A stretch of 64,000 nucleotides of DNA from a candidate division WOR-3 bacterium (GTDB taxonomy: Bacteria > Hydrothermota > Hydrothermia > B15-G9 > WFZT01). Made by a program: the position numbers and the translations under genes. Position 1 is the first letter of the stretch. Every line of letters begins with the position of its first letter. Below the pieces are notes generated by a model. The model saw only the letters and a list, made by a program, of their open reading frames with translations. It was not told where the DNA came from and ran no database searches. The stretch covers positions 1 through 64,000 of the forward strand of contig JALUEE010000047.1 in assembly GCA_027053075.1 (NCBI GenBank). The letters are read 5' to 3'. Positions 24,026 to 56,104 of this stretch are shown here, piece by piece.

Positions 24026-24087
24026 TTCCCTCCCCCACGCTCTGCGTGGGGGAGGGAATGAAAGGGAGGGGGCTTTCCGCTTGAAAA
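24026..24087. repeat. CCCTCCCC hairpin with TTCCGCTTGAAAA tail
   Basis: Perfect stem plus tail shared with 35161-35220 and 40228-40283. Confidence 0.75.
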
Positions 24088-24152
24088 CTGTAAAGATTCA
24101 TATCTAATCCATCAGGAAAAATTAAGAGATACCTAATTCTAAAAAACCCCCA

Positions 24153-30350: not shown

Positions 30351-30646
30351 GAGGGTGTTCGAAAATATCACCCCGGTCTTCCATTATTCACGAAGTGCAT
30401 GATGATGAAAAATATGTTATTCAATGATTCAGGTCTTTTCACCCTCCCTTATCTGGGGAAGGGAGGGCAGGGGTGGAATGGGGAAATTTTGGTCGGCAAG
30501 ACTTTGGGTTCATTTATTCTTCCCATTCTCCCCTAACACCTCCTTCCAATTAAAGGAGGGGCAATTTGTTGACTGCGATTGTCACCGTGGTTACGAGGAC
30601 CCCTTGGGAAAGGTAGCTCTAAAATTCAGGATTTTCGAACAGGCTC
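30351..30646. mobile_element. MITE with 16-bp TIRs and 9-bp flanking duplication
   Basis: GAGGGTGTTCGAAAAT / ATTTTCGAACAGGCTC; AGGACCCGG at 30342-30350 and 30647-30655. Confidence 0.8.
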
Positions 30647-33138: not shown

Positions 33139-33987
33139 TCATTTAACAATAAGTATTTTTCTGAAATTTTTCCCCGTCCTTAGCAAATAAAATCCAGATT
33201 TAGGAACTCCCCGGATTCTCCTCCCGGTTATATCAAATAATTCTCCATCCGGAATGGGGATTTTCCCGGCTGAAATTATTGCTTTTTCTTCAATAGATAC
33301 GGAATTTAACGCATTCTCGATAATTTGAATAAACCATCCCCAATCACTTCCCGAATCTGGCAACTCCGATGCAAAATTCGTGCTGTCTCTGTCACTATCC
33401 TCTTCGATTTCTGGGTGAACACCACTTAAGATAACCTTACCGTCCCCGTAATTTAGTTCGATGATAGCAGGTTCATTATTGACATTGTAAATAGCTATGG
33501 TATCAAAATTTCCGCCAGAAAAATATGGGCCTCCGTAGTAGAGGACCCATTCCGTTGAATCCTGCAAATTAATAGATGCCATGTTGTAGCTTGGCCATGG
33601 GGCGATCGAATCAATTGGACCAATAGCCGCTCCACTGTAAAGTGAGAGCGGATAAGAATATGACCTGCCTTCCCAGATCACGGTTCTTGACGCAAAGTAA
33701 GCCCCAGCGCAGATACCAACATAAACTCCACCATTCTGGACGAAACTTCTTATGTGAGAGATACCCGCAGAGTTTATGTTTCGCCTGTAATTGACAGCCC
33801 ATCCTCCGGGGATCACAAGAACGTCGTAAGCATTTAACGGACTGGAATTAATAAAGCTGGCGTTAACAGTATCCACGTAAAAATTATAAAACCTGAACAT
33901 CTGGATCAGGGCAACTTTGCCATCATCCCACACACCTTGACCGGTAAACAACGCCACCCTGAATGCGAGTATCATGAGCAAAAGCAT
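33139..33987 (-). CDS. Secreted BPL-N (glutamine-amidotransferase-like) domain protein
   Basis: LVIPGG, YVGICAGAY, SGVHPE; short DITGRR...SGFYLL tail. Confidence 0.8.
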   Translation of the reverse strand: MLLLMILAFRVALFTGQGVWDDGKVALIQMFRFYNFYVDTVNASFINSSPLNAYDVLVIPGGWAVNYRRNINSAGISHIRSFVQNGGVYVGICAGAYFASRTVIWEGRSYSYPLSLYSGAAIGPIDSIAPWPSYNMASINLQDSTEWVLYYGGPYFSGGNFDTIAIYNVNNEPAIIELNYGDGKVILSGVHPEIEEDSDRDSTNFASELPDSGSDWGWFIQIIENALNSVSIEEKAIISAGKIPIPDGELFDITGRRIRGVPKSGFYLLRTGKNFRKILIVK

Positions 33988-34807
33988 GTAAAGATTTTAC
34001 AAGCAAAATGTGTCTGAAAGCAAATTACAGATAATTGAGATCAGGGCTCATCAATCTAAGTCGCACTTATTTGTGCAAGTTATTTCTACTCTCTACCATG
34101 CTAAATACTCATTCCAGGGATATGAGCATGAGGTTCTCTCGGGATTATAACATAGACATTCATCTTCTGCTTGCTTGGGTGTAAATCAATAACAACCAGG
34201 AACTTCTCTAAGCATAGTCTCCAGGGAGGTATAGATCGAATCGGAAGACGGGGGAGGATGTCTTATATTTCGCTGATTCTTGCATTTTGGCTTCATGTTC
34301 GCGTTTTGAGCTGTTTCAATACGTCTTTTATGAGTAAAAGGGAATAACACCGTAGGAAGAAATTCTTTAACTTCCTTAATAATTCTCCCGTTTGCGGCCT
34401 GAAAGATGAATCGAAGAGGTTGAAAATTCCCCCATGTTCTGCGCTCATCAGAGTTAGAGCTCTATTTCTGGGTCTTTGTAAACGTCTGGAGGTTCGTATG
34501 TTCCGGGGTCGTCAGAGTTGCCGAGCTTTTCCAGTTGTTTGTCTTGCATGTCGAGAATTTTCTTCTGTTCCCCTGATCGTTGATTATCCTTTTTCCACTT
34601 TCTCTGCAAGCGTTGTCCTGAAAAAAATGGTAATTGGAAAAACTGGTGAGCTCCCTCCCTCGCTTGCGAAGCAAACGGGCTCTTTTACGCTCAGAAACGT
34701 TGGTTGGGATAAGTTAGCGCCCCGCATTTCTCGAAATCTCATTCCGTAGAGGTGTTTGGATAAGTTAGCATTCTTCCCCGCCTGCAAAATAAGTAGGGGA
34801 GCTGCCT

Positions 34808-35043
34808 GAATTAAATCCAGCTCTGCGTCATGAGCACGGGTATTTGTGAGAAAGTGGATTTCTGGGCACTAAGAATTAAATCAAGCTCTGTGACATAAGC
34901 ACCATCCGCGAGAGAAGAGATTACATTCACGACCTTAAAGACAATAGGAATTAAATCCAGCTCTATAACATAGTCACTTAAAAAACAACGCTGAGCTGGT
35001 TTTGAAAGAGCATGAATTAAAATCAGCTCTATAACACAGTCAC
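34808..35043. repeat. CRISPR-like mini-array: four diverged 30-nt repeats with unique 35/45/36-nt spacers
   Basis: Repeats at 34808, 34873, 34948, 35014 (e.g. GAATTAAATCCAGCTCTATAACATAGTCAC). Confidence 0.7.
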
Positions 35044-35220
35044 CCTCCCGTGGTTTTTTTGGTAGAACCTTTTTCATAGGCTTTTTCATAGTCACCCTCC
35101 CCCACTTGCTCTGCAAGTGGAGGAGTAGTCCAGTTCCCACCTTCGAAACTAAGGAAGTTTCCCTCCCCCACTTGCCCTGCAAGTGGGGGAGGGCAAGGGA
35201 GGGGGCATTCCGCTTGAAAA

Positions 35221-35502
35221 TTTTAAAAACTTAAGACGTTTATCTTCTTCCCCCTTGCGCAAGTAGGAATATTACTAACCTTTAAGTGACCAAAATTACT
35301 CCAACAAGTTTGGAAAAATTTTAAAAAGACACTGACATCGTCAACTACTATTAGTGGAATCCCAATCTTTTTACGACTAAAGTGTTGAAAATTCACGATT
35401 TCAATAAAAATTAAAGAGTTTTACCATCTTAGTGTCTAAATTTTATTTCCCTACCAAAGCAAACTGCTTGCAGAATCAGCCACTTAAATTTATCATATAT
35501 GT
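35221..35502 (+). promoter_or_regulatory. Putative CRISPR leader
   Basis: AT-rich non-coding stretch before the first repeat; the degenerate repeat is at the opposite end. Confidence 0.65.
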
Positions 35503-36789
35503 GTTCCGATCCTACCTACGAGGCATGGAAATTATCATCCACCTGAACGTCCCATGAAGCAGAATCAAGTTCCGATCCTACCTACGAGGCATGGAAATGA
35601 AAAATTCGGAATCAATTGCCCTGTAAGTGAATTGTTCCGATCCTACCTACGAGGCATGGAAATATTGGCCTTGTTCCTGCAGAAAACATAAGAGTGTCTT
35701 TGTTCCGATCCTACCTACGAGGCATGGAAATTTGAGATTGAGAAGTAGCCGTCAGTAGTGGAGATAGGTTCCGATCCTACCTACGAGGCATGGAAATTCC
35801 CCATATTCAGCTCGATATAGTTTTTTCAATTCGTTCCGATCCTACCTACGAGGCATGGAAATTACCTCCTTTTATTTTAATTATCCCTAAACCTAACGTT
35901 CCGATCCTACCTACGAGGCATGGAAATGCTTTGACTGATTGAGGTATGTGGAAAGTAAGTAAAGAGTTCCGATCCTACCTACGAGGCATGGAAATTTTTG
36001 TTTATAATCCCTTTCATAACATTTCTCCTCGTTCCGATCCTACCTACGAGGCATGGAAATGCGATCTTCTCAGAGAAATACGGGAACTAAAAGAGGGTTC
36101 CGATCCTACCTACGAGGCATGGAAATGCAAAAGTCCCAGGTAATTGCCCTGGAGAATCCCTTGTTCCGATCCTACCTACGAGGCATGGAAATCTCCGTTG
36201 CCGGCTAATCCGAATGCAAGGGTATTGGTTCCGATCCTACCTACGAGGCATGGAAATTAGATATCGAGAAGATTCTGAGGCTTCCGGTGTATTGTTCCGA
36301 TCCTACCTACGAGGCATGGAAATCATTTCTATTTTCTAACTTGGGTTTCACAAATTTTTCCCGTTCCGATCCTACCTACGAGGCATGGAAATAAACCAAT
36401 ATCACCAAATCCTATATAATCATGACTTTCGTTCCGATCCTACCTACGAGGCATGGAAATGAATAGACTATAAAAGCCCAGCCGTTTTGAGTTGGTGTTC
36501 CGATCCTACCTACGAGGCATGGAAATTATGTTTGGAAACATGAAATAAAATGGTATAAGAGAGTTCCGATCCTACCTACGAGGCATGGAAATCCGGAAGA
36601 CCCAGAAAAGATAAAGGAACTTGATGTAGTTCCGATCCTACCTACGAGGCATGGAAATACGGTTTTATCCACACCGTACACGGAGTTTGACAGGGTTCCG
36701 ATCCTACCTACGAGGCATGGAAACTCCAATCCTCTTTTAAGACAAATACATACGGCAATGTTCCGATCCTACCTACGAGGCAAAAAATT
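35503..36789 (+). CRISPR. CRISPR array, 20 repeats and 19 spacers (35-39 nt)
   Basis: Repeat GTTCCGATCCTACCTACGAGGCATGGAAAT (30 nt); repeat 19 ends GAAAC, repeat 20 (36760) is degenerate at its 3' end. Confidence 0.99.
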
Positions 36790-36868
36790 TGGTCTATCTT
36801 CTCTGACTCATTGACCTTCTGAGATTGCTTTGAAGATAAAAAATTTTGGGATTTTGAAACGTCCTCCA

Positions 36869-36909
36869 CGCGGTTTTGCCCACAAACGAAGTTTGTGGGC
36901 AAAACCGCG
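36869..36909. repeat. GAA-triloop palindrome downstream of the array
   Basis: CGCGGTTTTGCCCACAAAC-GAA-GTTTGTGGGCAAAACCGCG, 19-bp perfect stem. Confidence 0.85.
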
Positions 36910-37003
36910 AAAATACATTCACCCCACCATCAAAAACTATCCCTTCCCATCCCTCCACCTCCAATTCTTGTTTGAAAGCTCCCCATTCGTTAGAATTTTC
37001 GAC

Positions 37004-38878
37004 ATGACCCTGAGGAAAAGACTTTCAATCTACACCATAATTCTCGTAGTGGTTTTCATCACTACCGCCACCGGAATCTATTACGTCATCTCCACAAACT
37101 CCCTCAAAAAGGAACTCTTCTCTCAGGGTGAACTCATGGTCCAGCAGAACATCCTTCTACTTGATGACTTCTTTAGTAATGCAAGGAATATCACCGAGGC
37201 TATTGCAGCCAGCGAAAAACTCAAAAACTACCTCCTCAACCCTTCAAAAACCCTGCAACTTTCCCTCGAACAGGAGTTCCTCCAGATTTATAAAAAAATT
37301 GACATTATCCAGGCAATTAGACTCGTGGATACTTCCGGCCACATTCGTGTGTTTATCAAGGAAGGCGAAATCTTATCAGAAAATCCGCGTTACACAAAAA
37401 TCAGCCTTTCTCACAAAAAATTTTTCATAAAAGCGAGGAATTACAAAGGCAAAGGAGTCATTTTCTCTAATATGGAACGCGGAAAACTCCCCAACGAAGA
37501 AACCTTCTGCCCCTCAATGGTTAGATCCATAAAACCCCTCACTCGCAATAATCAAAGAATTGGATACCTTGTCATAAATTTCTGGGGTGACAAAATCGGT
37601 AGTACACTGAATCTAAACAAAGACCCGGAGAGAAAACACTCATTCCTTGTCGAAATCAACCTCAGAGACTCTACAAGGAATGGCATTTTCCTCTACCACT
37701 GGAACAAAAAATACGAATTTGCTAATCAATTCAGAACCGGTTATACATTTCAGGGAATGTACGGCCCCGACCTCTGGCAAAAATTAACATCTCACAAATG
37801 CGGAGTTATGAGATTAAAATCGGGGGATTTCATGTTTTTCGATACATTCTATCCTTACAAAGATTCTCTGCAGGCATGGAAAGTCTGCTCAATCCTCAAC
37901 CATGATCAATTCTTCAAAAGTGTAGTTTACATCAAAAGATTTTACTTTCTCATTGTCCTTGTATCTATCGTTTTTGTAATAATTTTCTCGCACTCTTTCA
38001 GCCGAAAATTTACAAACCCCATCTGGCAAATCCTTGGACAACTCGAGAGAATTGGCAGGGGAGACCTCTCAGGGATAGACCCCATAAAAGGGGATTACGA
38101 AATTGAAATAATCTCAAAAAGCATAAGCAGCATGGTGGAATCCTTAAGAAAATACATTGAGGAACTCCATGACACTCGCAAAAAGCTTGAAATGCTTGAC
38201 AGACTTTCATCTCTGGCTACCCTCTCAGCAGGTCTGGCCCACGAACTCAGCACACCACTTAATTCGATAATATTGATATCCGAAATGCTCGCAGACGAGC
38301 TCGAAGGAGAAAAGAAAGACGACGTTCTGACTATAAAAAATCAGGCAGAAAGATGCATGAAAATAATTCACAGCCTGAGAGAGTTCTCCGCACGCAAACT
38401 CGAAGACGAGCACATTGAACTTATTCGACTTGGGGAAGTAATTAAAAAATTGAAGCCATTACTCGAGTTCTACGCCTCAAAATTTAACTTTGAAGTCAAA
38501 CTTCAGGATACCGGTCTCATCAAAGGTAATCGCATTCAGATTGAGCAACTCATAATAAACCTGGTGATAAATGCGGTGGACGCCCTGAAAAGCACAAAAA
38601 ATGGGGTTATAAGGCTGGAGACATTTAATGAAAACGGACATGTTGTCCTGAAAATTGAGGATAACGGTGAGGGAATTTCCAACGAGCACATAAACAGGAT
38701 TTTCGATCCGTTTTTCACAACAAAGGATGTGGGGAAAGGAACAGGTCTTGGCTTATCTATTGTTCACGGGATCATAAAATCCCACGGTGGGCATATCGAC
38801 GTAAAATCCGAGAAAGGCAGGGGGACTATTTTTATCATAAGATTTCCGGAGGCAAAAAATGAAAATTCTATTAATTGA
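37004..38878 (+). CDS. Membrane sensor histidine kinase (periplasmic Cache-like, HAMP, HisKA, HATPase)
   Basis: Two TMs, AHELSTPL, NLVINA, DNGEG, FFTTK..GTGLGL. Confidence 0.93.
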   Translation: MTLRKRLSIYTIILVVVFITTATGIYYVISTNSLKKELFSQGELMVQQNILLLDDFFSNARNITEAIAASEKLKNYLLNPSKTLQLSLEQEFLQIYKKIDIIQAIRLVDTSGHIRVFIKEGEILSENPRYTKISLSHKKFFIKARNYKGKGVIFSNMERGKLPNEETFCPSMVRSIKPLTRNNQRIGYLVINFWGDKIGSTLNLNKDPERKHSFLVEINLRDSTRNGIFLYHWNKKYEFANQFRTGYTFQGMYGPDLWQKLTSHKCGVMRLKSGDFMFFDTFYPYKDSLQAWKVCSILNHDQFFKSVVYIKRFYFLIVLVSIVFVIIFSHSFSRKFTNPIWQILGQLERIGRGDLSGIDPIKGDYEIEIISKSISSMVESLRKYIEELHDTRKKLEMLDRLSSLATLSAGLAHELSTPLNSIILISEMLADELEGEKKDDVLTIKNQAERCMKIIHSLREFSARKLEDEHIELIRLGEVIKKLKPLLEFYASKFNFEVKLQDTGLIKGNRIQIEQLIINLVINAVDALKSTKNGVIRLETFNENGHVVLKIEDNGEGISNEHINRIFDPFFTTKDVGKGTGLGLSIVHGIIKSHGGHIDVKSEKGRGTIFIIRFPEAKNENSIN

Positions 38879-43171: not shown

Positions 43172-44194
43172 TTAATCAATGACAGGAATATCCATTTCAG
43201 TGACGTCAATTCTCACGAGACTTTTATCACCGGACTGTCTCACATACTCAGCCTGTCTATCTCCCACCACAGCCTCAAGAATCATTGCTGATGATACCAT
43301 CGCGGTCCCACCGGTTATATTAAAACTAATATCGCTATCTTCATAATTTTTGAGATTTTGCAGCAACCTATCTAATTCAATCTTAACGTCTCTGAAATCA
43401 CTGACATCAACAACTCTGGACTTTTCTATGATCAAATCTCCCGTGGTAATTCTTTTTTCGAGATGTGGAATAACCTTCAGAAATTTTTCAAAATCAGCAA
43501 AATGTTCTTTTGCTTTCTCTGATAATATGACAATAACCCCTTCAAGAATGTGATTTTCGTGTATAATTGCTCTCAACGCCGGTGTCCAGTTGCCGGGCAA
43601 GTCTTTTAAAGTTTCCTCTTTAGGTATTGCCGGGTTACCCAGTTGCCGTAATTTTTCTTGAAGAGATTGAATCTGTTCAAAGGGCTCACTGCTGGGCAAA
43701 CTCAGTGCAAAGATAAGAACTTTTCTGGGGAGCGGTTTATCGTGGGCAGGTTTTTCTTTTGGCTCGAACAAACAATTGATGTATAGTAGAGGCAATAAAA
43801 ACAGAAACAAGATTGCCAATATGAATGTCAGAATGTGATGCCAGAGTAAGCCCTTATTGTAATCCGGTGTTAAAACAAGTATCCCTGCATCCCTCACACT
43901 ATCAAATACCCAGGAAATCTGGAATAAAACACTCAGGAAAATCCAGATGGACAGGTATCTATAAATTTTCTTTAACCCTTTTCGCGGTGGCTCTTTTAGA
44001 AAGTTACGAAGGGCATCTGTGAGGCCAATAGATTTGTCCTTATATTTATACATCAAGATGGTTATTGCTGAAATCAAAAGGATAATCAATAAAGTTTGGC
44101 CTAACGCCATAAAGGAGAGTATAAATGGGAAAACGCTTGAAAAGGCCAAAAGTGCAATTATGAACAGTATCTTTAAAAATTCCCTGAAGCTCAA
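43172..44194 (-). CDS. Transmembrane CARF-domain CRISPR effector (Cam1/Cam2-like)
   Basis: About 4 N-terminal TM helices; C-terminal Rossmann-like domain with ISFNITGGTAMVSS; last gene of the cas operon. Confidence 0.75.
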   Translation of the reverse strand: MSFREFLKILFIIALLAFSSVFPFILSFMALGQTLLIILLISAITILMYKYKDKSIGLTDALRNFLKEPPRKGLKKIYRYLSIWIFLSVLFQISWVFDSVRDAGILVLTPDYNKGLLWHHILTFILAILFLFLLPLLYINCLFEPKEKPAHDKPLPRKVLIFALSLPSSEPFEQIQSLQEKLRQLGNPAIPKEETLKDLPGNWTPALRAIIHENHILEGVIVILSEKAKEHFADFEKFLKVIPHLEKRITTGDLIIEKSRVVDVSDFRDVKIELDRLLQNLKNYEDSDISFNITGGTAMVSSAMILEAVVGDRQAEYVRQSGDKSLVRIDVTEMDIPVID

Positions 44195-44196
44195 TT

Positions 44197-44583
44197 TTAT
44201 ATCCTTCTCATTTCTCTGAACTTTTCTCTGATGCTCTGGAGATTTATTATTTCTGCAACCTCAAATTTTGGAGGGGTAGAATTCGGAACCGGCTTCAATC
44301 TCACTACAGGTGGGAAATATCCCATCAAACCATGAAGTGCTGCAAGGAGGGTGACAGCAATAAAATTAAAGGCTGGTGGAACTATTATAATCGGCCGTGT
44401 CTGCCACTCCTCAGGTGTCAGGTTACACGCCTCAATAAGATCTTTCACCTGCTCCTCAAAAGACTTTTCATTATCAAAAAACACTGGAATCTGCCTTATC
44501 TCCTCAATCTCCTCATCTATCAATTTCCTGATCTGCCCCACCTGCTCCTCAGTTAGTGGATGAGAAAAATTAAGCACGAGCAT
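44197..44583 (-). CDS. csx15: CRISPR-associated protein Csx15
   Basis: LNFSHPLT, LHGLMGYFP, EIINLQ motifs. Confidence 0.8.
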   Translation of the reverse strand: MLVLNFSHPLTEEQVGQIRKLIDEEIEEIRQIPVFFDNEKSFEEQVKDLIEACNLTPEEWQTRPIIIVPPAFNFIAVTLLAALHGLMGYFPPVVRLKPVPNSTPPKFEVAEIINLQSIREKFREMRRI

Positions 44584-44585
44584 GG

Positions 44586-44713
44586 TTACTTTAAAATTTT
44601 AAACACTCCATATCCCTGATTCCCTTTTGCTCCAACACCTATGTTTTCAAGGGCAAATTCGAGAAATCTTTATCCCAGAATATTGAAAAAGTATCTATAA
44701 AAATAACCTTCCC
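44586..44713 (-). pseudogene. cmr6: Remnant of a III-B-like cmr6 (C-terminal pieces)
   Basis: GKVIFIDTF, then in another frame RFLEFALENIGVGAKGNQGYGVFKILK-stop, ending 2 nt before the csx15 ATG. Confidence 0.75.
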
Positions 44714-44717
44714 GTTA

Positions 44718-45575
44718 TTATGATTTAATTGGTCGCCATAAACCATTATCCAATATTTCAAAGTAAACATCTTGATCGCTATCCACCTTTGTTCCTGGTT
44801 TCCAAGTCAAGCCTTGTGTATAAATACGCTGTAAGTACCTGCCCTCCAAAACTTCAAAATCTCCTTTAAATTTGAAGTGCGGGTCTGGCATTATATGACC
44901 AAATGCTATATTGGATTTTATGCGTGGATTTGTATGATTCAGTTCCACTTCGTAATCCAAAAAACGAGAAGCTTCCGGATGTTTCACGAGTTCAATATGA
45001 CCAAATCCGTAGCGGGTATCTGCTCCTACCATCAGTTTCTTTATTGAGAAAACTTGGTTTTGAACACTCTCATCGGCAATAAACACATACCCCACCATGA
45101 ACATCTCGGGAGGTGGATAATGGTTACTAATTTGCCAATAAGGTTGAATGCACTCTAATTCGCGAAGTGTCCCTTCCTCAGCACTATCTGATTTGGGATC
45201 AATGGATGTGGAGGGAAACGAATACAGAATTTTTGATTTGAAGTCTCTGTTTGGCTTATCATCATTTGGAGTGTCTTCCCTTTTCCAAACGAGTCCATCA
45301 GAGTATTCTGAATACCACATAGCGTATTCATCGCCAATTTTTTCGGCTGGGAACAGATAGGAAAATCGGACATTTTGTAGCAAATTTTCACCAATCGAAA
45401 TATAATCCGGGAAACTACTTCCTGCCGTATCCCGTGATAACTCGGCTGTTAATGCTCCCCAAATTGTCCTTGCTGGTATGTATAAGCGGGTTCTGTTCAA
45501 AATTCCTGCTGGTGCCGTGCCGATATTTATGGGTGATTTTACCTTCCAGACCCATCGGAACATCTTCCATGCCAT
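44718..45575 (-). CDS. cmr3: Type III-C RAMP Cmr3 (Cas5 group)
   Basis: SPINIG, YIPARTIWGALT, GADTRYGFG; position after cmr5. Confidence 0.75.
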   Translation of the reverse strand: MAWKMFRWVWKVKSPINIGTAPAGILNRTRLYIPARTIWGALTAELSRDTAGSSFPDYISIGENLLQNVRFSYLFPAEKIGDEYAMWYSEYSDGLVWKREDTPNDDKPNRDFKSKILYSFPSTSIDPKSDSAEEGTLRELECIQPYWQISNHYPPPEMFMVGYVFIADESVQNQVFSIKKLMVGADTRYGFGHIELVKHPEASRFLDYEVELNHTNPRIKSNIAFGHIMPDPHFKFKGDFEVLEGRYLQRIYTQGLTWKPGTKVDSDQDVYFEILDNGLWRPIKS

Positions 45576-45581
45576 AATTTC

Positions 45582-45950
45582 TCACCCCTGTTTGGCCTTC
45601 AAGTGATAACGAGCATACGAGAATGCGGTGCGTAGAAGGTCTCGAGCAAAAAGTAAATCATCTAAATCTTTGGAGTTTGCTAAGAGCTTTATTGCTTCCA
45701 AAATATCGTCCGTAGTATCCAAGCGATTTCCGAAAATGGTCTTGAGAAATTGCAGAGATTCCGATCTAACCTCTTTAGCTACATTGTTATTCTTGGCCTT
45801 GAGATATAGAAACATCGCATACGGGCCTTGCTCTTCCAAAACAGTCAAGGCCTCGTTGACAAGATTTTCATCTATGCCAGAAATCTGGGCTATCTCACGG
45901 CCCAATTCGGCACACTGAATGTCCAAATTTTTCATTTGAGCTTCACTCAC
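45582..45950 (-). CDS. cmr5: Type III small subunit Cmr5 (Cas11)
   Basis: Helical, ALTVLEEQGPYAMFLYL, YARYHLKA; GTG start with GGAGG. Confidence 0.75.
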   Translation of the reverse strand: MSEAQMKNLDIQCAELGREIAQISGIDENLVNEALTVLEEQGPYAMFLYLKAKNNNVAKEVRSESLQFLKTIFGNRLDTTDDILEAIKLLANSKDLDDLLFARDLLRTAFSYARYHLKAKQG

Positions 45951-45978
45951 GGCTTTCCTCCTCGTTTGGTTCAGAGGC

Positions 45979-47010
45979 CTATGACGGATTAGATTGTCTC
46001 TGAGCGGGTTCAACGCAATCAATATCTTGGGTTCCGGGCGATTCATTCTCATGCACAACTTCTACGCGTCCCATGCCTCGAGTGCCCATGCCGCCGATGC
46101 CCAAGTGTTTGAGATAGGGGTGAGCCTGGTGGGTTACCTCATGCACCCTTTCTGGAGAATACATTCGCTGACCACCATCCAGAATGACGCCTATCTCCTG
46201 TCCACCTATTCTAAAATGCTGAGGATTCTTTGCGATAATTTCCCACACCAGGACCGTGGATCGAGGCAGGGCTTCGTAAGAGAAGAGAGCCCTTTCTTCG
46301 GCAGCACCAGTTTCGGGATTGATGGAAACCGAGGTGCGCACTTCCAAATTGCTGTTGACGATGTGGGCGAAGAGGCGGTCAGGCACCAAAGCAAGGCGGT
46401 TTTGGATGTAATCTGGGATACCCAGGCCTTGCAATTTAGTTTTAATATCATTCATTTGGGCACACGCTTGCACAGGCAGCAATAACCAACCCAAGTTAAG
46501 AGGGTTGCCCGAGTTTGATTCAAGGTAAACGGCATTTTCCTCCACCCCCTGCACATTCAAACCTATAAAACGCAAGGTCTGAGGTGCAGTCACCCACATG
46601 GGGCCTTGACGGGTAGCGACAGGGAAGAGCAGCAAATGGACATCAGTAAAGGCGGCCAAGCCTGCAAAACCGCCTTCCTGCCCTGCACCACGGGCGAAAC
46701 CAAAGACAGTGCAAACGGGACAGTCAGGTTGGCGACAATGCCCATGATCCGCATCCAGCCCTAACCCGGCGCAATCGGGGTAAAAAGGTTTATCTCGGTT
46801 CGGAAATTGTGCTGTCCGATTTTCTTCAAAATACATCGCCACATAGGCCCGATACACTCCAGCTAAGCTGGACCCAGGAATTTTAGGCACCTGGGTGACC
46901 GGGTCGCGCACAATAGTCAAATCTACCCGACCGATGCGGGTCCCACCGGTGCCCACATGAATAGGGTCCAGAGCCAGACCAACCTGCAAGAATTTTTTGT
47001 AACTAGACAT
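45979..47010 (-). CDS. cmr4: Type III RAMP Cmr4 (Cas7)
   Basis: DPIHVGTGG, VDLTIVRD (catalytic Asp), IPGSSLAG, GGMGTRGMG. Confidence 0.9.
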   Translation of the reverse strand: MSSYKKFLQVGLALDPIHVGTGGTRIGRVDLTIVRDPVTQVPKIPGSSLAGVYRAYVAMYFEENRTAQFPNRDKPFYPDCAGLGLDADHGHCRQPDCPVCTVFGFARGAGQEGGFAGLAAFTDVHLLLFPVATRQGPMWVTAPQTLRFIGLNVQGVEENAVYLESNSGNPLNLGWLLLPVQACAQMNDIKTKLQGLGIPDYIQNRLALVPDRLFAHIVNSNLEVRTSVSINPETGAAEERALFSYEALPRSTVLVWEIIAKNPQHFRIGGQEIGVILDGGQRMYSPERVHEVTHQAHPYLKHLGIGGMGTRGMGRVEVVHENESPGTQDIDCVEPAQRQSNPS

Positions 47011-47023
47011 TATTTACCTCCTT

Positions 47024-50000
47024 TCAAACATTTTCTTTAAGGACTATTGTATGCCAATCTATCGCCCATTGGAGTAATCTCTGTTGGGCAGAGTCTATGA
47101 GGGTTTCAAGTGCTGTGCCCCTGACCTCTAAATGGTGCACAAGCATGGCACGGAGAGTATCTTCCCACAAATCTTTTGAAACGGCTCGTTGCCCCTCGGG
47201 TGTTTGCCATTCCTTTTCCAAACGCCCAAGTTCTGTTCTAAATCTCTGAAGAGCCGTTTGGCTTGGGACAACTTTCTTTAATAGGTTCCATATTTCGCGC
47301 ATTTGCTCCCAATCTTCCAAGTAATGTAAATCTGGGTTAGAGAAGCGAGCGGAGGTGCTTCCCATGAAGAGGATGGTTACACGCGCTGTGGATACTTTTA
47401 CACCATCACCTGGACGAAGGTCCGATACATGACGGTAAACACGGCCATCCTTTGGATGGCGAAAATCTCGGGGAAAACGAAGTTGTCGATCCTCAATTAC
47501 CATGTAAGGATAGAACACATCATCTCGCCCATCAGGCATAGCAGTAGGCACTATCTTTAAGATGCTCTTGCCGTCTTCCAGTTTTAAGCGGAGGACTACC
47601 ACACCTGCTTGTCGTTCCACTTCTTCCACCTGCCATGTTTCCTCCTCTCCTTTCAGTTCTTCTTCCATTTTACGTGTTGCTCCGATCACGGCCTGATAGG
47701 GCAACATTCGAGGGAATGCGACCACGCCTATCCGTAAAGGAAGCCGATCCCACACGCGGGAGAAGTGTTCCTTCCACCAGGAAACAGCTATATCCACACA
47801 TTCGGAGGCCGCTTCCAATGGCACCAGCACCCGAAAACGAAGTGGAGAGACTTCTACCGGAATGACCGGGTGATACAAGCTCAAGTGCGCATGAGGCTGA
47901 CGCAGCTCATTCACATGGGTAACAGTCATAGGACGCTCCTGACCAAAGGTATCTTCTTCTTCCAGCCTAATTTGAGCACCCTGAAAGGAACTCGATTGCT
48001 CTTCTGGCCGTAGCAATCTACCCAGATTGGAAGCCGTCACAAAACCTCCCAGGCTACGCACATAGACCAGGCTAATCTGCCGACCTTCCCAACGGCCATT
48101 GTAAAGGGTCAGGTCTCGCCAATCGTTATTGTCGTCTGGAACCAACACCAAGCGTCGGACACGCCAGCAATTTTCGCTGCGAGCCGCTATCTGCCGAAAT
48201 TCCTTCAGCAAGTCATGGAAGAACTCCTCGGCCTCCCGCCAGAAGCGATAGACACGGCCAGGTGAGGGAAGCTTGCGGAAGAGTTGATGCGCAAGCCAAG
48301 CAGCTCGCTGGTCGTCATTCAAGATACCCCATGTAGGTGCATCGGTACGATCCTCTACAATTTTACGGAAAAAAGTTGGCCAGTCATTTTCATACTTGTA
48401 ACCCTCTTGAAGGTTGGCAAGCAATTGGTCGTTTTTATCGAATTTAAAATGCTGTGGATTTTGTGGATCGCGAAACCTTTGTTTTAGCTCGTCAATCAGC
48501 TTATCCATAGAGCCTGTGGGGGCAATAGGATTAGGTTGACCTGAAAGGACCAGGTTAAATCTCACCCACTCCGGTATTGCTTGTACCCGCAGGCTATCCA
48601 CACGGCTGCCATTGAGCCAATCTTCAAGGTCCAGTGAGAATGTTAGCAAAGCCAGGCGGCCGTTGCGGTCAGCCACCTCCTCGAACCAGATGGTGTCGTA
48701 ATCCAGTTGCCCCTGAAGCCATGCATCTCTTCGATGGTGGCGCCGCTCGCGGCATACCGCGCATGGCTTACCCTTGTTGGTGGGATCACCGTTTAGTCGC
48801 ACACGGCAGACGGGACACACATGACCACGCGTCTCTGAAGGAGCCCTCCAATGAACATCCCACTGCTTGTGAACAGGGACGGCCACTACCAGCTTGGACT
48901 CTTTAAGCTCCCTAACAATGGGTACCAATGAACGGGTCGGCTTACTCAGGCGCACAAAGGGCGGGGTTTCCAGTTCCAGATTACGGGCGATTTCTTCTAC
49001 TTGATCTTGGAGCCATCCATTCCATCCTCGGAGCCGGGATGCGAAGTTCTCTTCATCAAACTCAAAATTCGGATCTCTCCGTCTTTGACGTTCCTGTTCT
49101 TCTTCATCGAATCTCTCGCCGGGAAAAGAAAACACGGCCATGCTGCTGTCTCGATAAAGCAAAGAGCCTGCAGCAATGTCCACCTCCACCAATTCAGCTA
49201 CACGACGGAAAAATTCGTCAATGGCACCTTGAGCACCTGTCCAGTCACCAATTTTTACCGCGCGGGCTTCGTAGTGCTCGGTCCCAAGGGCGATAGTGAG
49301 CAGGCGCCAGCGGGTATTGCTTTTGGTAAAATTATTGATAGCCAATTTCTCATCTTTCGATAGGTCATCGAAGGACTTCTCTTTTCCTTTCTTTGTTCTA
49401 AGGTTTATACCCAATTTGGTAGCTATGCTCTTCCAGTTCCAAGGAAAACCCTTATCGAGCAACGCCCCAGCCACCGCGCTCTTAAATAGAGCCGCAGCCA
49501 CATAGGACTGGTCCCACAAGGTAACATCGTTGTTGGGCAAACGCGTCTCGGCTAAGGTGGACATAAAAGCTCTTCGGACAAAAGATTTTTCTCCGATAGC
49601 TCTATTCCGCCAGTCTTGCCAATGAGCTACATCTGACACACCTCTGGTTCCTAAGTCCCGCAACTCCTCCAAAACTCGCCGGATTTCTCCCACCAATTGC
49701 TGCCAGCCCTGTGGAGTCAATAGTTCAGGTGGATTGGCCAGCAGGTTACGCTTTGGGTGGCCCCAAGGTGAGGAAAGCCACATGTGAGGAATGGTTTGCT
49801 TAAGATAATCTGAGGTAGAAGTAGGAAGGTTTTTCTCGACGCCAGAGACAATACCATGTCCTGCTTGGAGTAATCCCAAAAGACCAGGGTTACGTCCTGC
49901 ATGTTGTTCAATAAACGTAGAAAAAGAACCTGGCCATGCATTATTGGGTATTCCACTCCCGTATAGCCGTTTTACCCATTCTAATAAGGTATCCCATGGA

Positions 50001-50182
50001 AAAGGTGGCGTTTCCAAATCATGCCAATGTCGTTCATCGTAGCCGTTGTTCTCGCCACCATGACGGCGTAAAAATTCAATTCGTGCCTTTCCAGCCATGT
50101 GAAACCACCCAATGGCCTCCATTGCTAAGAGTAAAGGGCGATGTTGCCGTAAAGTCTCAGCCGGTGAGAAAGTGCTGCTCAT
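47024..50182 (-). CDS. cas10: Type III-C large subunit Cas10 (Csx11-like)
   Basis: ETRLPNNDVTLWDQSY, CPVC...CAVC, KLPSPGRVYRFW; HMAGK where HD is expected and no GGDD; start ATG 50182. Confidence 0.85.
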   Translation of the reverse strand: MSSTFSPAETLRQHRPLLLAMEAIGWFHMAGKARIEFLRRHGGENNGYDERHWHDLETPPFPWDTLLEWVKRLYGSGIPNNAWPGSFSTFIEQHAGRNPGLLGLLQAGHGIVSGVEKNLPTSTSDYLKQTIPHMWLSSPWGHPKRNLLANPPELLTPQGWQQLVGEIRRVLEELRDLGTRGVSDVAHWQDWRNRAIGEKSFVRRAFMSTLAETRLPNNDVTLWDQSYVAAALFKSAVAGALLDKGFPWNWKSIATKLGINLRTKKGKEKSFDDLSKDEKLAINNFTKSNTRWRLLTIALGTEHYEARAVKIGDWTGAQGAIDEFFRRVAELVEVDIAAGSLLYRDSSMAVFSFPGERFDEEEQERQRRRDPNFEFDEENFASRLRGWNGWLQDQVEEIARNLELETPPFVRLSKPTRSLVPIVRELKESKLVVAVPVHKQWDVHWRAPSETRGHVCPVCRVRLNGDPTNKGKPCAVCRERRHHRRDAWLQGQLDYDTIWFEEVADRNGRLALLTFSLDLEDWLNGSRVDSLRVQAIPEWVRFNLVLSGQPNPIAPTGSMDKLIDELKQRFRDPQNPQHFKFDKNDQLLANLQEGYKYENDWPTFFRKIVEDRTDAPTWGILNDDQRAAWLAHQLFRKLPSPGRVYRFWREAEEFFHDLLKEFRQIAARSENCWRVRRLVLVPDDNNDWRDLTLYNGRWEGRQISLVYVRSLGGFVTASNLGRLLRPEEQSSSFQGAQIRLEEEDTFGQERPMTVTHVNELRQPHAHLSLYHPVIPVEVSPLRFRVLVPLEAASECVDIAVSWWKEHFSRVWDRLPLRIGVVAFPRMLPYQAVIGATRKMEEELKGEEETWQVEEVERQAGVVVLRLKLEDGKSILKIVPTAMPDGRDDVFYPYMVIEDRQLRFPRDFRHPKDGRVYRHVSDLRPGDGVKVSTARVTILFMGSTSARFSNPDLHYLEDWEQMREIWNLLKKVVPSQTALQRFRTELGRLEKEWQTPEGQRAVSKDLWEDTLRAMLVHHLEVRGTALETLIDSAQQRLLQWAIDWHTIVLKENV

Positions 50183-51198
50183 GGCGTACCTCCTTTGGTT
50201 AGCCAGTTTTGAACTTCCTGCCAGAGTTCGTCGCGAGTATCCTTTTCCACGCTGCCATGAGTTTTGTGGAAAGCGCGCCACTTTTTGATTTCCGCTGTGC
50301 CCCAGCCCACAGTGCGCTTGGCGGAGATCCCATAGGGAGTAAGCAAAGTTTCAATAGCTTCAAGCAGTTTTGGGAGTACATCCACAGGTTTTGCCTCTGG
50401 CTCCATACCGGGCCAGGGCGCGTAAAGTAATGAAAGTGTTCCTTCGGCTCCCTCAACTTCCTCTCTTTCTTGGGTTCCATCAGACTTTTTCTTCACCTGT
50501 ATCGTCCGTCCAGGAACCACTTCATAGTAAATAGGTTGGGTGCCAGCGCGATTGGTACGACTATGTGGGTTGATGACCTCGAAGCCGATCTTGTTGAACC
50601 ACGTGGGGTAGAAGACCAGAGCGCCCTGGTGGAAGTTTTTCTCTTCCTTCTTCTCGTTACCAAAGAGATGCTGAATCCAGTCCGGATCCCACCAGCCATC
50701 TATTTTGCCATTGTGTTGTTCCAGATATTCCATCAGTCCTTCGTGCATTCTACAGGCCCATCGCAGCATGCCTTTACAAGAGGAAGCCGCCATAAATGGC
50801 ACGCCAAAGACCCGGTCTTTACGCACAGGGTTGTCCATCACATGGAAAATTCGGTCATCACGGGAATACCAGGGAGTGAGTAGTTCAAAATCCACCTGAA
50901 GAGCAAGCCAACGATCAGATAATAGCGTGGAAAAGTCAATTTGTAGTCCTGGATACAACTTGACCGGGAATCTCCGAGGCACTTTTCCCATGTATTCCTT
51001 ACGGAGCCTCGTTTTCTCCCGCTCCGCCTGACGTTTTCCCTGTCTGTCATTTGTCTTTTCCGCTTCTAATCGCTTGATTTCAGTCTTCAAGAAGCATTTG
51101 AAAATATGATCGATAAAACCTCCGGCCAGCCTCCAAGCCACCGGAGTGTTTTCCAATGGTTCGCAAGTCTCAAGAAAGATGAAGTAATCCCAAGTCAT
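50179..51198 (-). CDS. cmr6: Type III-C RAMP Cmr6
   Basis: LLTPWYSRDD, KGMLR, LVFYPT, EVINPH, YGISAKRTVGWG. Confidence 0.85.
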   Translation of the reverse strand: MTWDYFIFLETCEPLENTPVAWRLAGGFIDHIFKCFLKTEIKRLEAEKTNDRQGKRQAEREKTRLRKEYMGKVPRRFPVKLYPGLQIDFSTLLSDRWLALQVDFELLTPWYSRDDRIFHVMDNPVRKDRVFGVPFMAASSCKGMLRWACRMHEGLMEYLEQHNGKIDGWWDPDWIQHLFGNEKKEEKNFHQGALVFYPTWFNKIGFEVINPHSRTNRAGTQPIYYEVVPGRTIQVKKKSDGTQEREEVEGAEGTLSLLYAPWPGMEPEAKPVDVLPKLLEAIETLLTPYGISAKRTVGWGTAEIKKWRAFHKTHGSVEKDTRDELWQEVQNWLTKGGTP

Positions 51199-52421
51199 GA
51201 ATTTTCCTCCTGTTTGAACAATCGTTCCATAATTTGCTCTCCTGTAATGAAATCCTCATTCGGATTAAAGTCCTGCCAAATTTGCCCCAAGCGGCGCTTC
51301 ATTTCTTCAAAATCCACTAAACCCGGCTTCACAAAGCCAAAGGTGCGGCGTGCTTCTTCTGGATGTTCGAAACTGAACACTTTTTTGCTTACCTGTTGAC
51401 TACCCGCAAGCCAGTGATTAACCTCGTTATCTCGCCAGAAGTTCTGCGCTTGGTTCTTCCGCATATTCCTTCCAATGACAAGATTATATGTACTTTTGGT
51501 GAACGATTGCCTTGCCAGATACCGTCCTTTCACGAACCAGAAGTTTTGCAACGAGGCCCAGGCAAAATCTTGGTCGTTAAAGCTCTTTCGCCACCGTTCC
51601 TGTTTTACATATGCTTCTGCTTGCTGCAGAGTGCAGCCAACTCCTTGAGGCCGCTCCTCAACCGTGATGAGCCCGAAATCCTGATGGTGTCTCTTTCCGG
51701 CCCAAGCATTGATCTCCCGAGTTTCATTGTCCCTTCGCACTTTGATTTTGAGAGGTTCACCATGCGGTTTTCCACTAAGGAGGTTTTCAAGGTCAAGAAG
51801 ACGAGTCACCAATGTGCTATCAACTTCCAGGATTACATCGCCTTCTTGTAACTGGAGCCCCCGCCGACTGTGTCGCACTTTTATCTGCCCGCTTGAATCG
51901 TCCAGATCATCGGCGCCAAGATCAGCGATTCCCCATTCATCTGACGGCTTGAACACCGTTTTCCCACCCAAGGCCCCGTATTCGGCAATAAGGTGGATGG
52001 TTGCATCCAGCAGACACCATTCTTCTGGATGAATAGGTCGCAAAGGGATGAAGCGTAGGATAAAAATATTACTCCCGTTGTCGTCATTATCTACCTTGAT
52101 CTGATTTTGGATGACCTTTTTTCCATATTTGTCCACCACCATAAGCCGGAACTTGCGTGCCCAACCAGTGCAACCGAAAAGTTCACAAACCACGCAATGG
52201 TGGCCAGGTTCATGTGGCTGTTTGTTAGGAGCTGGGCAACGAATTTCCGACGCCGTCGGGTCACAAGCCTTCCCACCCAATCCTCGAACTAACACCTCGA
52301 ACCACCAGCGAAGTGAACCCATTATACCGGTCAAGATCGTTCTTTCCCCACGCCTTGAAGCATCCCCTGTGAATATCGGGGTTAGCGCTTTTAACTTCCA
52401 TTCCTCCCATTCTTTACTCAT
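51195..52421 (-). CDS. cmr1: Type III-C RAMP Cmr1 with PDZ-like insertion
   Basis: LTPIFTG, GSLRWWFE, CELFGCTGW, YGALGGK. Confidence 0.85.
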   Translation of the reverse strand: MSKEWEEWKLKALTPIFTGDASRRGERTILTGIMGSLRWWFEVLVRGLGGKACDPTASEIRCPAPNKQPHEPGHHCVVCELFGCTGWARKFRLMVVDKYGKKVIQNQIKVDNDDNGSNIFILRFIPLRPIHPEEWCLLDATIHLIAEYGALGGKTVFKPSDEWGIADLGADDLDDSSGQIKVRHSRRGLQLQEGDVILEVDSTLVTRLLDLENLLSGKPHGEPLKIKVRRDNETREINAWAGKRHHQDFGLITVEERPQGVGCTLQQAEAYVKQERWRKSFNDQDFAWASLQNFWFVKGRYLARQSFTKSTYNLVIGRNMRKNQAQNFWRDNEVNHWLAGSQQVSKKVFSFEHPEEARRTFGFVKPGLVDFEEMKRRLGQIWQDFNPNEDFITGEQIMERLFKQEENS

Positions 52422-52543
52422 TAGGATATCTCCATTTTTAAAATAACCTGTAAGGACAAGAGAATAACGGTTTCATCAGGAAATAAGCATTTCGGGTATA
52501 GGGAATCATGGCTGTAGAAATTCAAGAGATAAAAAGTCTCTGT

Positions 52544-52660
52544 GAACCAGAATCTCATTGCGCCTCTTATCGAGGCGGGGCGGAGTTCGGGCTCACCCTC
52601 TGGGTCAGCTCCGCCCATAAACATTGGGGTTAAGACTTTTAGTTTGAAGGTGGTTTTCAT
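52544..52660 (-). pseudogene. cmr1: Truncated III-B-like cmr1 (first ~39 codons)
   Basis: MKTTFKLKVLTPMFMGGAD...ELRPASIRGAMRFWF, then similarity is lost; own RBS. Confidence 0.85.
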
Positions 52661-52697
52661 AGTCCCTCCTTACCCATTCGCAAAGAATGGGATTTTG

Positions 52698-53456
52698 TTA
52701 ATCCTTATTTCTCACCACTTCGATCATGCCGAAGCCCTGGCTGTTTTTGGCTCCCAGGCCCGCATTGTAAGCAAGCATAAACCAGGGCTCGGGCAGGCTT
52801 AATTCATATATTCCTACCCAACCCTTAACAATGACGCCTTTAAACTTCGTTATTATCTCGTTGTGCTTCTTAACCTTTACGGGCTTTATATACCCCTCAA
52901 TTGGTGGGATGTCGTTTTTGGAGAAGTAAGCTTTGGCCTTGCGACGGAGGTTATCAAAGATCAATTCTTCAAATTCTTTCTCGAAGGGACTAAAGTAATA
53001 GGTCTTTCTCTGTCCATCGGACGTGTATAAAGTTCGATAAACTGTTATCGGAGAGATTGCTTTAATTTTCATAGGTCCCGAGAGTTTGAAAGGTCTCTCA
53101 ACCTCAATTGATACGAGATTGCATTTAGCTGAGCCGATTCTTACCACCCCTTCCTTAACCAGTGTAGCTGCGAAAGATTCGAGAATCTCAATATCAACAG
53201 ATGAAATCTTAAACCAAACTCGCCCCTCAAAAATCAGCTTTTTGCTTATCGGATCATACCTTCTATTTTCACCGAAGAGTCTTGAGAAGGTGTATAACTT
53301 GAATCTTCTCTTTCCAAATTGGTAGCCTTCATCATGTACCCATTCAGCGAGCTTCTCTTTGATGTTGTTGAGGATAAAACTCTGGATGATGTGGTTGTAA
53401 TTGACGGAGATTCTAAGGATTCCGTTCTCTGGCTCAAATTTTACAATTAATCTCAA
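52698..53456 (-). CDS. cas6: CRISPR endoribonuclease Cas6
   Basis: YNHIIQ, HDEG, FKLYTFSRL, GLGAKNSQGFG. Confidence 0.95.
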   Translation of the reverse strand: MRLIVKFEPENGILRISVNYNHIIQSFILNNIKEKLAEWVHDEGYQFGKRRFKLYTFSRLFGENRRYDPISKKLIFEGRVWFKISSVDIEILESFAATLVKEGVVRIGSAKCNLVSIEVERPFKLSGPMKIKAISPITVYRTLYTSDGQRKTYYFSPFEKEFEELIFDNLRRKAKAYFSKNDIPPIEGYIKPVKVKKHNEIITKFKGVIVKGWVGIYELSLPEPWFMLAYNAGLGAKNSQGFGMIEVVRNKD

Positions 53457-55466: not shown

Positions 55467-56104
55467 GGACCTGTTCGAAAATTTCTTATTGGGCATTAAA
55501 TCTTATTGATATCTTTCACCATTCTCCCCTAACCCCTCCTTCCTCAAGGGAGGAGGGGAATTTGGACTTGCAATGAGCTAAACGTGATAGATGCAGGGTC
55601 AAAAGGGGATCGTCTTGCGAAAGGATTTTCTAACCAACAAAGATATCCACAGAATCTTCCTCTCACCACGTAAATACTTGCGGGGATAGGATTGAGGTGA
55701 GGGGCAACAACTTAATTTTTCAAGATTTCAAGTGGAATGCCCCCTCCCTGAATCCCTCCCCCGCGCATCGCGCGGGGGAGGGGTGCCTTTATGTGTATGC
55801 TACACAAGATTCGCTCGTGAGGGAATGACACTTGCCACATAGACGGAGTTTCAGCTTCCCTGAGTAAATTTTCTTGTGTAGAGAGAAATCAGGGGAGAAT
55901 GGGAAAAATTAACTATCTTTAGGTCGTCTAATAGAGCGATATTCCTAAACATGCATAAAATACCAATAAATTTATCCATTCCACCCCACCCCTCCCTTCC
56001 AAAGGAAGGGAGGGAGTTTTGCTACTTGTCGTGCCTGGAGAAAGTTGTTTAACATCACTTCCATACGCTACATAATAGCAAGGGGGACATTTTTGAACAG
56101 GCTC
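55467..56104. mobile_element. Composite MITE-like region
   Basis: GGACCTGTTCGAAAAT / TTTTGAACAGGCTC ends; internal hairpin modules shared with the 30351 and 58331 elements; no TSD seen. Confidence 0.6.

Follow-up and report, generated by a model that had tools for sequence, protein, structure and literature searches.

Upstream of a canonical CRISPR array in a candidate division WOR-3 bacterium, four 30-nt direct repeats and the apparent remains of a fifth enclose unrelated inserts of spacer size. We interpret this mini-array, found in the 64,000-nt stretch of DNA analysed here (contig JALUEE010000047.1 of assembly GCA_027053075.1, positions 1 to 64,000, forward strand; hereafter the window), as an inert CRISPR-type array that an integrase would have made on a non-canonical repeat, be it an ectopic 'neo-CRISPR' or the relic of a lost system, and we assign this interpretation a probability of roughly 0.55. 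An earlier, sequence-only reading of the window had entertained a CRISPR relic as one of several options. That option has gained from the geometry of the units, from the bounded copy of a host gene in insert 2 and from the loss of one whole unit in other strains.

Anatomy of the mini-array

The four repeats start 65, 75 and 66 nt apart, and the inserts between them are thus 35, 45 and 36 nt long (Table 1). Repeat length is constant at 30 nt in all four copies, pairwise identity ranges from 67 to 90%, and the inserts are mutually unrelated, as the unique spacers of a CRISPR array would be. Every copy opens with G at position 1 and closes with C at position 30. Relative to copy 3, copies 1 to 4 are 77, 83, 100 and 90% identical; neighbouring copies differ at 4, 5 and 3 of the 30 positions and non-neighbours at 7, 8 and 10. 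Four sites split copies 1 and 2 from copies 3 and 4, and private changes number three in copy 1, one in copy 2 and three in copy 4. In our reading of the four sequences, this stepwise drift would describe a tree in which neighbouring repeats are sisters. Farther on, the 31 nt at 35065-35095 agree with the mini-array repeat at 16 positions in a hand alignment, nine of which are the exact 3' bases, CATAGTCAC, at 35087-35095. Because of these 16 shared positions, we count this stretch as a probable fifth, degraded repeat behind a shortened insert.

The repeat family is far beyond chance. When the 1.5-kb intergenic region was simulated 200 times with a first-order Markov model, a 30-mer with three partners matching at 23 or more of 30 positions never arose; three simulations yielded one partner and 197 none. 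The unit sizes mimic those of the canonical system, whose repeats are also 30 nt long and whose 26 spacers measure 35-40 nt. A scan of the whole assembly for arrays with exact 14-mer repeats finds the two canonical arrays only and misses the mini-array. The sequence-only reading had set the four repeats (starting at 34808, 34873, 34948 and 35014), their 35-, 45- and 36-nt spacers and the partial repeat at 35087 exactly where we find them; it had also remarked on the stepwise drift, on the likeness of unit size to the main array and on the probability that standard finders would overlook the feature, and our measurements bear it out on these points, the 14-mer scan being in keeping with the last.

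A host-gene fragment between two repeats

Where do the inserts come from? In a short-word BLAST of the inserts against the genome (G000), the sole significant match was that of insert 2 to G000:C6:18821-18861 (expect value, E, 2.65e-7). Local alignment extends over 39 nt of the insert (34904-34942), with 38 of 41 columns identical, two single-base gaps and one mismatch. The source is a 782-codon tricorn-type protease gene with Pfam PD40, Tricorn_C1 and PDZ domains, and the plus strand of the window over insert 2 corresponds to its sense strand. The homology begins at the second base of the insert, 1 nt from repeat 2, and stops 5 nt before repeat 3; nothing in the flanking repeats aligns to the gene. 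Across the 1.5-kb intergenic region this is the only match to the rest of the genome outside a dispersed family of repetitive extragenic palindromic (REP) elements. Contig C6 belongs to this genome and is no binning contaminant, since it carries the same REP family. The orthologous tricorn-like gene of a congener (G004) is one mismatch further from insert 2 than the gene of the host itself.

Insert 2, bounded as it is by direct repeats, is most likely the footprint left by Cas1-Cas2 integration, and it provides the array with a protospacer for one of its three inserts. Readings unrelated to CRISPR are disfavoured because none of them predicts a spacer-sized piece of another locus between direct repeats. 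Inserts 1 and 3 gave only exact matches of 14-16 nt in the genome, none extendable, and no match in the phage and plasmid collections, where the mini-array region as a whole returned only matches at E 0.08-0.9. The canonical array had no match in the phage collection, none of the 26 canonical spacers matched its own genome at E 0.01, and the core of insert 2 was matched by nothing in the JGI metagenomes. A comparison of the spacers with viruses and with the host had been suggested by the sequence-only reading, with the cas promoters in view; it has borne fruit on the host side, through insert 2 and the tricorn-like gene, and has given no significant match for phages or plasmids and no meaningful one for cas promoters.

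A repeat already non-canonical at the presumed capture of insert 2

Is the mini-array repeat a decayed copy of the canonical one? The best correspondence is that of copy 1 with the repeat variant of the second canonical array (C57:3429-3926, eight repeats, at a contig end), on the same strand, with 14/30 identities ungapped and 18/29 gapped. This variant differs from the canonical repeat of the window at three positions and ends in ...GGAAAC, not ...GGAAAT. Identity to the canonical repeat drops from copy 1 to copy 4 (14, 13, 12 and 10 positions), and on the minus strand it amounts to 10-12/30. Suppose that the repeats were still canonical at the capture of insert 2: 16 of their 30 positions would then have altered, against 3 of 41 in the insert, a model that is rejected (Fisher p 2e-5). 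Because of this disparity, the repeats would already have been non-canonical when insert 2 entered. Repeats 2 and 3, which flank the insert, differ from each other at 5 of 30 positions, a figure compatible with identity at the time of insertion (p 0.27).

Strain variation and the loss of a unit

Parts of the stretch occur in 12 sequencing runs, drawn from four studies, all of them DNA and none RNA; four of these runs served for a comparison of strains, with per-base differences taken among the differences listed. The mini-array is present in all conspecific strains seen in these four runs, and a haplotype with a single, unexpanded 30-mer occurs in none of them. In runs X3 (depth 60) and X4 (depth 25), from two other studies, one contig each joins 34947 to 35014. 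The joint skips 66 nt, exactly repeat 3 and insert 3, and 8 bases are common at the junction. The same event appears as a 22-residue gap in two protein variants from other assemblies (P0004 and P0002), in which the remaining repeat, to judge from the residues, has the 5' part of copy 4 with T where copy 4 of the window has C at position 24. Recombination within the first 8 bases of repeats 3 and 4, followed by a later substitution in the lineage of the window, is the simplest history of this loss.

In X4 the mini-array is old and fixed, since depth is 17-87 on the mini-array and leader as against 0-3.9 on the canonical spacers of the window, which are nearly absent from the run. In X3 and X1, contigs join canonical repeats to other spacers. 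The canonical array thus varies between runs, and the inserts of the mini-array are common to them. Among the differences listed, the substitutions are compatible with drift. The mini-array of X3 shows 14 differences in 287 nt. In X1, a co-occurring divergent strain has 11 changes in 101 mini-array positions, as compared with 22 in the 151 positions just upstream (p 0.45), as would be expected of drift at the local non-coding rate. Of the changes deduced from the protein variants, repeats and inserts hold three each, as drift predicts.

The runs also bear on the surroundings of the array. The co-occurring strain of X1 (depth 10, against 84) has 12 other bases in place of 34649-34779 (131 nt), a segment in which a REP-like hairpin is accompanied by a GGATAAGTTAGC motif that occurs twice, at a distance of 51 nt, and that looks like a small mobile insertion in the strain of the window only. 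The strains of X3 and X4, which come from other vent samples, share the upstream flank and leader with the window and have different canonical spacers (35538-37200); one X3 contig has a single 35-nt spacer in place of 35999-36696. In these strains the histidine-kinase gene that directly follows the canonical array has next to no depth, and the trailer side of the array may vary by rearrangement between strains.

Searches for the repeat elsewhere

The sequence-only reading had proposed a BLAST of the repeat in this and related genomes, and the outcome is that the repeat was seen nowhere else in this genome and as an array in none of the collections searched. In the genome itself, the 30-mers recur only inside the mini-array at up to eight substitutions, and, with two mismatches allowed, the conserved 17-mer occurs at one isolated site besides. 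A BLAST search with the region returned no counterpart of the mini-array in 41 relatives, with no homologous region in the congeners, none in 64 genomes of the class and none in 272 genomes of the phylum, for which two candidates per genome were scored. Four marginal matches at class level (E 0.001-0.007) proved to be AT-rich coding sequence and not arrays. A GTDB-wide scan with the conserved 17-mer returned at least 120 stretches, about the number estimated for chance, and among the matches listed each was single. A pattern of two repeats at array spacing gave no records in the JGI metagenomes. Rfam offered no CRISPR-DR match for the repeat, only weak matches to REP hairpins (E 0.3-0.9). All these searches depend on nearly exact words; relatives that have decayed could go unnoticed.

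With a loose two-repeat pattern, viral contigs showed single matches at 96 loci, which we read as chance. A strict pattern gave two loci, L251 (957 kb) and L252 (362 kb), both from IMG/VR and of giant-virus size. We rejected them as tandem duplications of a hairpin unit without unique inserts: they consist of tandem 70-73-nt units with a perfect palindromic hairpin, and the 14-16 bases that this hairpin has in common with the 5' half of the mini-array repeat were judged coincidental.

A model for the origin of the array

What process could have assembled such a structure? The feature is most likely CRISPR-derived, that is, made by adaptation machinery, and the array most likely inert. In the model that we favour, Cas1-Cas2 would have integrated spacers at a non-canonical 30-bp repeat, each event duplicating the 30-bp site and inserting a piece of some 35-45 bp, until an array of four and a half units had been built. 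At least one of the pieces, insert 2, would have been taken from the organism's own tricorn-protease-like gene. The array would now be drifting, its repeats differing at 3-10 of 30 positions and its strains differing in repeats and inserts alike, and one unit would have been lost through recombination between neighbouring repeats. That an integrase built the array is our inference, as is the view that working guides no longer arise from it by transcription.

Two origins would fit this scheme about equally. The integrase may have been that of the resident type I-B module, acting ectopically on a non-CRISPR site just upstream of the canonical leader, which we hold as a tentative possibility. Alternatively, and on a similarly tentative footing, the array may be the remnant of a CRISPR-Cas system that has since gone from the locus. 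A search for cas pseudogenes by family scans of nine frames between 34010 and 35396, six of them upstream of the mini-array, produced only one Pfam match (E 0.056). The ectopic origin is favoured by the exactly canonical repeat length, by the G...C borders in four of four copies and by parallels with off-target integration in Pyrococcus furiosus. According to the portions of PMC6698737 that describe the integration reaction, Cas1-Cas2 of this archaeon makes two attacks 30 bp apart at preferred G and C bases, its off-target sites share features of the repeat, and such events were proposed to seed new arrays. The mini-array carries the same ruler, 30 nt in both repeats, with the border bases in place, a preference known from P. 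furiosus and not from this organism; the adaptation module is also at hand, as Cas1, Cas2 and Cas4 are encoded on contig C30. Taken one step further, the ectopic version could be told as a natural neo-CRISPR, made by the resident I-B Cas1-Cas2-Cas4, that began with the piece of the protease gene, grew without leader polarity and decayed unread by Cas6 and effector. We advance this history with due reserve. Growth without leader polarity is suggested because the repeat tree pairs copies 1 and 2 and copies 3 and 4 around what would be the oldest, middle insert. If true, the locus would be a rare field record of how a CRISPR array originates.

Several observations weigh against an integrase-made array. 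In the collections searched, no array with the mini-array repeat was found beside cas genes, and kinship with a known family is not supported. Likeness to the canonical repeat is marginal, with column-permutation p values of 0.03 gapped and 0.06 ungapped (each for the maximum over four copies, two strands and two canonical variants). This likeness may hint at relatedness or at common integrase preferences, and it agrees with the remark of the sequence-only reading that the repeat is not clearly similar to the main one. A source is identifiable for only one of the three inserts, and that insert, at 45 nt, exceeds all 26 canonical spacers (maximum 40) and has five bases at its 3' end that do not match the tricorn-like gene. 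Among the differences listed for X4, the mini-array shows 9 in 258 nt as against 14 in 181 just upstream (p 0.08), which could hint at constraint. Finally, a frame on the minus strand is open through three of the repeats, for 92 to 123 codons, from 35089 (ATG) or 35182 (TTG) to 34811.

A minus-strand reading frame across the repeats

This open reading frame (ORF) raises the question of whether the repeats belong to a small gene of 92 aa (34811-35089, minus strand), so that the repetition in the DNA would reflect a protein repeat. We consider this improbable, although the frame has coherent features. Copies 4, 3 and 2 read in one frame as a hydrophobic motif, D-C/Y-V-I/T-E-L-D/I-L-I, and the 66- and 75-nt spacings are multiples of three; copy 1, however, is out of frame and provides the stop codon. 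The ATG lies 5 nt downstream of a GGAGGG run, but this run, though it resembles a Shine-Dalgarno sequence, is part of one of the REP hairpins. In hexamer coding score (0.259) the ORF exceeds the 95th percentile of off-frame pieces of real genes and reaches only the 5th percentile of true genes. The part that lies over insert 2 is nothing other than the antisense of the fragment from the tricorn-like gene.

The ORF is called in this genome and in three other assemblies (proteins P0001, P0002 and P0004), and the 66-nt deletion in other strains keeps its frame. Its relatives are nonetheless chiefly variants of itself: two of the three candidates in a word-indexed search of 5.8 billion clustered proteins are strain variants, as is one of the two matches among 1.84 billion representative proteins. 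The other of these two matches, P0005, was rejected as a homologue, as one 19-aa motif present four times in it aligned to insert 3, which is missing in other strains. No Pfam or NCBIfam family matches the ORF. P0004 differs at 6 of 70 aligned residues, and the X4 contig has 9 listed base differences in 258 nt over the same stretch; if the two haplotypes are similar, at least two thirds of the changes are non-synonymous, and purifying selection is not in evidence. By our own count, about 12 substitutions separate the repeat copies, and 3 of these are synonymous. On account of its strain-variant relatives, the lack of a family, the low score, the residue changes, the stop in copy 1, the antisense insert 2 and the REP hairpin, we judge the ORF most likely spurious.

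Guides or binding sites?

Returning to the integrase-made array, could it still be read out? A working array would produce guides that resemble CRISPR RNAs (crRNAs), be it a regulatory one of the CreA/CreR/crlRNA kind or one that serves a Cas effector, and by way of insert 2 its target might be the tricorn-like protease gene or the transcript of that gene; we rate this as unlikely. The setting invites the idea. The mini-array is next to a CRISPR leader and 8 kb from a type III-C operon, in a genome that also has a type I-B operon elsewhere, and it is kept in every conspecific strain seen. In the part of bioRxiv 10.1101/2023.03.03.530964 that concerns composite loci, mini-arrays are described as commoner at such loci, among the published examples of which is one that combines I-B with III-C. 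The sections of the same preprint on regulation describe repeat-like sequences derived from the system's own repeat, with a 16-bp match threshold, and guides whose seed matches a promoter site flanked by a protospacer-adjacent motif (PAM). The mini-array, in contrast, offers scattered identities at 14 of 30 positions and no 16-bp match.

Insert 2 does match a host gene imperfectly, as regulatory guides do, but the match falls within the coding sequence rather than at a promoter, and contains two single-base gaps. When the inserts were compared with six regions covering the cas promoters, the leader and the flanks (18 tests), the lowest p values were 0.01 and 0.047, none of the matches was of the seed type, anchored at an end, and no convincing match to the cas promoters emerged. 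Read from the minus strand, insert 2 would be complementary to the protease mRNA; on the plus strand, the one with weak canonical likeness, it has the mRNA's own sense, and the minus-strand repeats are even less canonical-like. Neither strand folds better than shuffled sequences (z -0.37 and -0.07). As deduced from the protein variants, strain differences are as frequent in repeats as in inserts, and Cas6 is present only once in the genome. Regulation of the type III kind through minus-strand insert 2 is conceivable at low probability. A new guide array, also among the options of the sequence-only reading, is unlikely because the repeats have diverged and only one Cas6 is present.

A last alternative, that the repeats are protein-binding sites unrelated to CRISPR, such as iterons or an operator array for a regulator, strikes us as very unlikely. 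Four direct repeats with a conserved 17-nt 5' half, at spacings (65, 75 and 66 nt) that by our own arithmetic are near whole helical turns, would suit such a role, and a sigma-54 activator and its kinase are encoded just past the canonical array. Yet no replication initiator, partition gene or other plasmid gene is present among the 21 neighbouring ORFs scanned, and the repeat is absent from the 272 phylum genomes at the depth of scoring given above. Binding sites explain neither the bounded copy of a chromosomal gene between two repeats nor a repeat length exactly equal to that of the canonical CRISPR repeat. Of the readings first put forward from the sequence, then, the CRISPR relic has gained ground, the regulatory RNA has lost it on repeat likeness and on the cas-promoter tests, and nothing has come to light in favour of iterons.

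Genomic setting

The mini-array lies within a 1.5-kb gene-free stretch, flanked on one side by a minus-strand gene (33139-33987) that encodes a BPL_N domain, of the biotin-protein-ligase N-terminal-like kind, and on the other by the canonical array. It is located upstream of the canonical leader, and 460 nt, including two REP elements, precede the canonical array. The leader is assigned to the 35241 side, with the array read on the plus strand, because the last repeat is degenerate.

Table 1. Features of the mini-array and its surroundings (window coordinates)
Feature	Position	Strand	Remark
Mini-array repeat 1	34808-34837	+	Copy nearest the canonical repeat, 13-14/30
Insert (spacer) 1, 35 nt	34838-34872	+	No significant match in anything searched
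Mini-array repeat 2	34873-34902	+	
Insert (spacer) 2, 45 nt	34903-34947	+	34904-34942 copies the host's tricorn-protease-like gene, sense strand
Mini-array repeat 3	34948-34977	+	Lacking, along with insert 3, in X3 and X4 strains
Insert (spacer) 3, 36 nt	34978-35013	+	No significant match; gone from the 66-nt-shorter haplotype
Mini-array repeat 4	35014-35043	+	Most diverged copy
Short insert, then putative degraded fifth repeat (35065-35095)	35044-35095	+	Hand alignment
Two copies of dispersed REP-like hairpin element	35093-35240		Between mini-array and canonical leader
AT-rich leader of canonical array	35241-35502	+	Position set by degenerate terminal repeat at the far end (36760)
Canonical CRISPR array	35503-36792	+	20 repeats of 30 nt, spacers 35-39 nt
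92-aa ORF across repeats 4 to 1	34811-35089	-	Gene-caller prediction; judged most likely spurious

The type III-C (Csx11) operon, at 43172-53456, includes the only Cas6 of the genome, at 52698-53456. A complete type I-B operon is encoded on contig C30 (494-8306), with Cas8b, Cas7, Cas5, Cas3, Cas4, Cas1 and Cas2; its Cas1 scores 456 bits with the type I-B model and has Cas2 and Cas4 alongside as the resident adaptation module. This operon is without a cas6 of its own. Since the sole Cas6 of the assembly sits at the III-C locus, the I-B and III-C systems probably share it, together with the arrays of 30-nt repeats. In the Cmr1-like protein of the III-C operon (51195-52421, minus strand), PDZ/HtrA-type protease models match weakly in mid-protein (E 1e-4 to 7e-3).

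A promoter scan that does not suit this organism returned no sites in the region on either strand, canonical leader included. The two canonical leaders are barely alike (p 0.14), so that a comparison with leaders is without power. The flanking genes have counterparts in congeners at 53-66% identity, on different contigs and without adjoining arrays. Between the BPL_N-like gene and the mini-array, a 51-codon ORF (34454-34609, minus strand), rich in charged residues and with a coding score of 0.31, typical of real genes, has no family match and may be an unannotated small gene.

The REP elements belong to a family resembling REPs or miniature inverted-repeat transposable elements, with a CCCTCCC...GGGAGGG hairpin followed by a conserved tail. 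Copies in the window lie at 35093-35125, 35155-35240, 34651-34679, 24054-24094, 30437-30566, 55513-55562, 55970-56019 and 58409-58532. The family has many copies on dozens of contigs of G000, occurs also in the congener G004 and is absent from the other relatives searched.

Relation to known systems and implications

How does the mini-array compare with structures that have been described? The part of review PMC6990116 that deals with self-targeting, summarising Stern et al. 2010, lists 'mutated adjacent repeats' among the features of non-effective self-targeting. Like the degenerate or orphan arrays with self-spacers treated there, the mini-array has a spacer that matches the host, mutated flanking repeats and no obvious cas genes of its own. 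Unlike them, it has repeats that all differ from the canonical one at more than half of the positions and that would have done so already at capture. To class the mini-array with these degenerate arrays of self-derived spacer, a kind known from the same pages of the review, is the safest reading.

A natural ectopic array is a fair candidate. As in the neo-CRISPR work (Nivala, Shipman and Church 2018, cited in bioRxiv 10.1101/148544, PMC6698737), insofar as those two sources recount it, the repeat is at most weakly related to the canonical one and equal to it in length; the inserts are spacer-sized, an adaptation module is resident and the repeat is without a counterpart elsewhere. The same accounts concern type I-E of Escherichia coli with an over-produced integrase and present natural cases as only circumstantial; here, none of the four runs compared gave an empty-site haplotype.

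The likeness to regulatory mini-arrays, as far as the preprint's description of them (10.1101/2023.03.03.530964) goes, lies in the small size, in a position apart from the main array and near CRISPR-cas genes, in the degenerate repeats and in the imperfect match to the host. Those arrays usually have two repeats recognisably derived from the repeat of the system, whereas here four to five are not recognisably so. They also carry a seed match to a promoter site flanked by a PAM, and the mini-array is without a promoter match. Finally, degenerate repeats at the trailer end of an array also decay with position, as the canonical array itself shows at 36760; the mini-array, unlike these, is upstream of the leader and set apart by the 460 nt that contain the two REP elements.

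What are the implications of such a structure? Decayed arrays and self-derived spacers are already known, so that on the safest reading the case is an ordinary one. It carries a lesson for annotation, in that four assemblies have a 'hypothetical protein' where gene callers met this array. It is also useful, as it combines a non-canonical repeat of canonical length and border bases with an insert that is sharply traced to a host gene, and as the mini-array is fixed in strains where, in one run, the adjoining canonical array has different spacers. With this combination it becomes testable whether, in nature, new arrays are seeded ectopically by adaptation modules.

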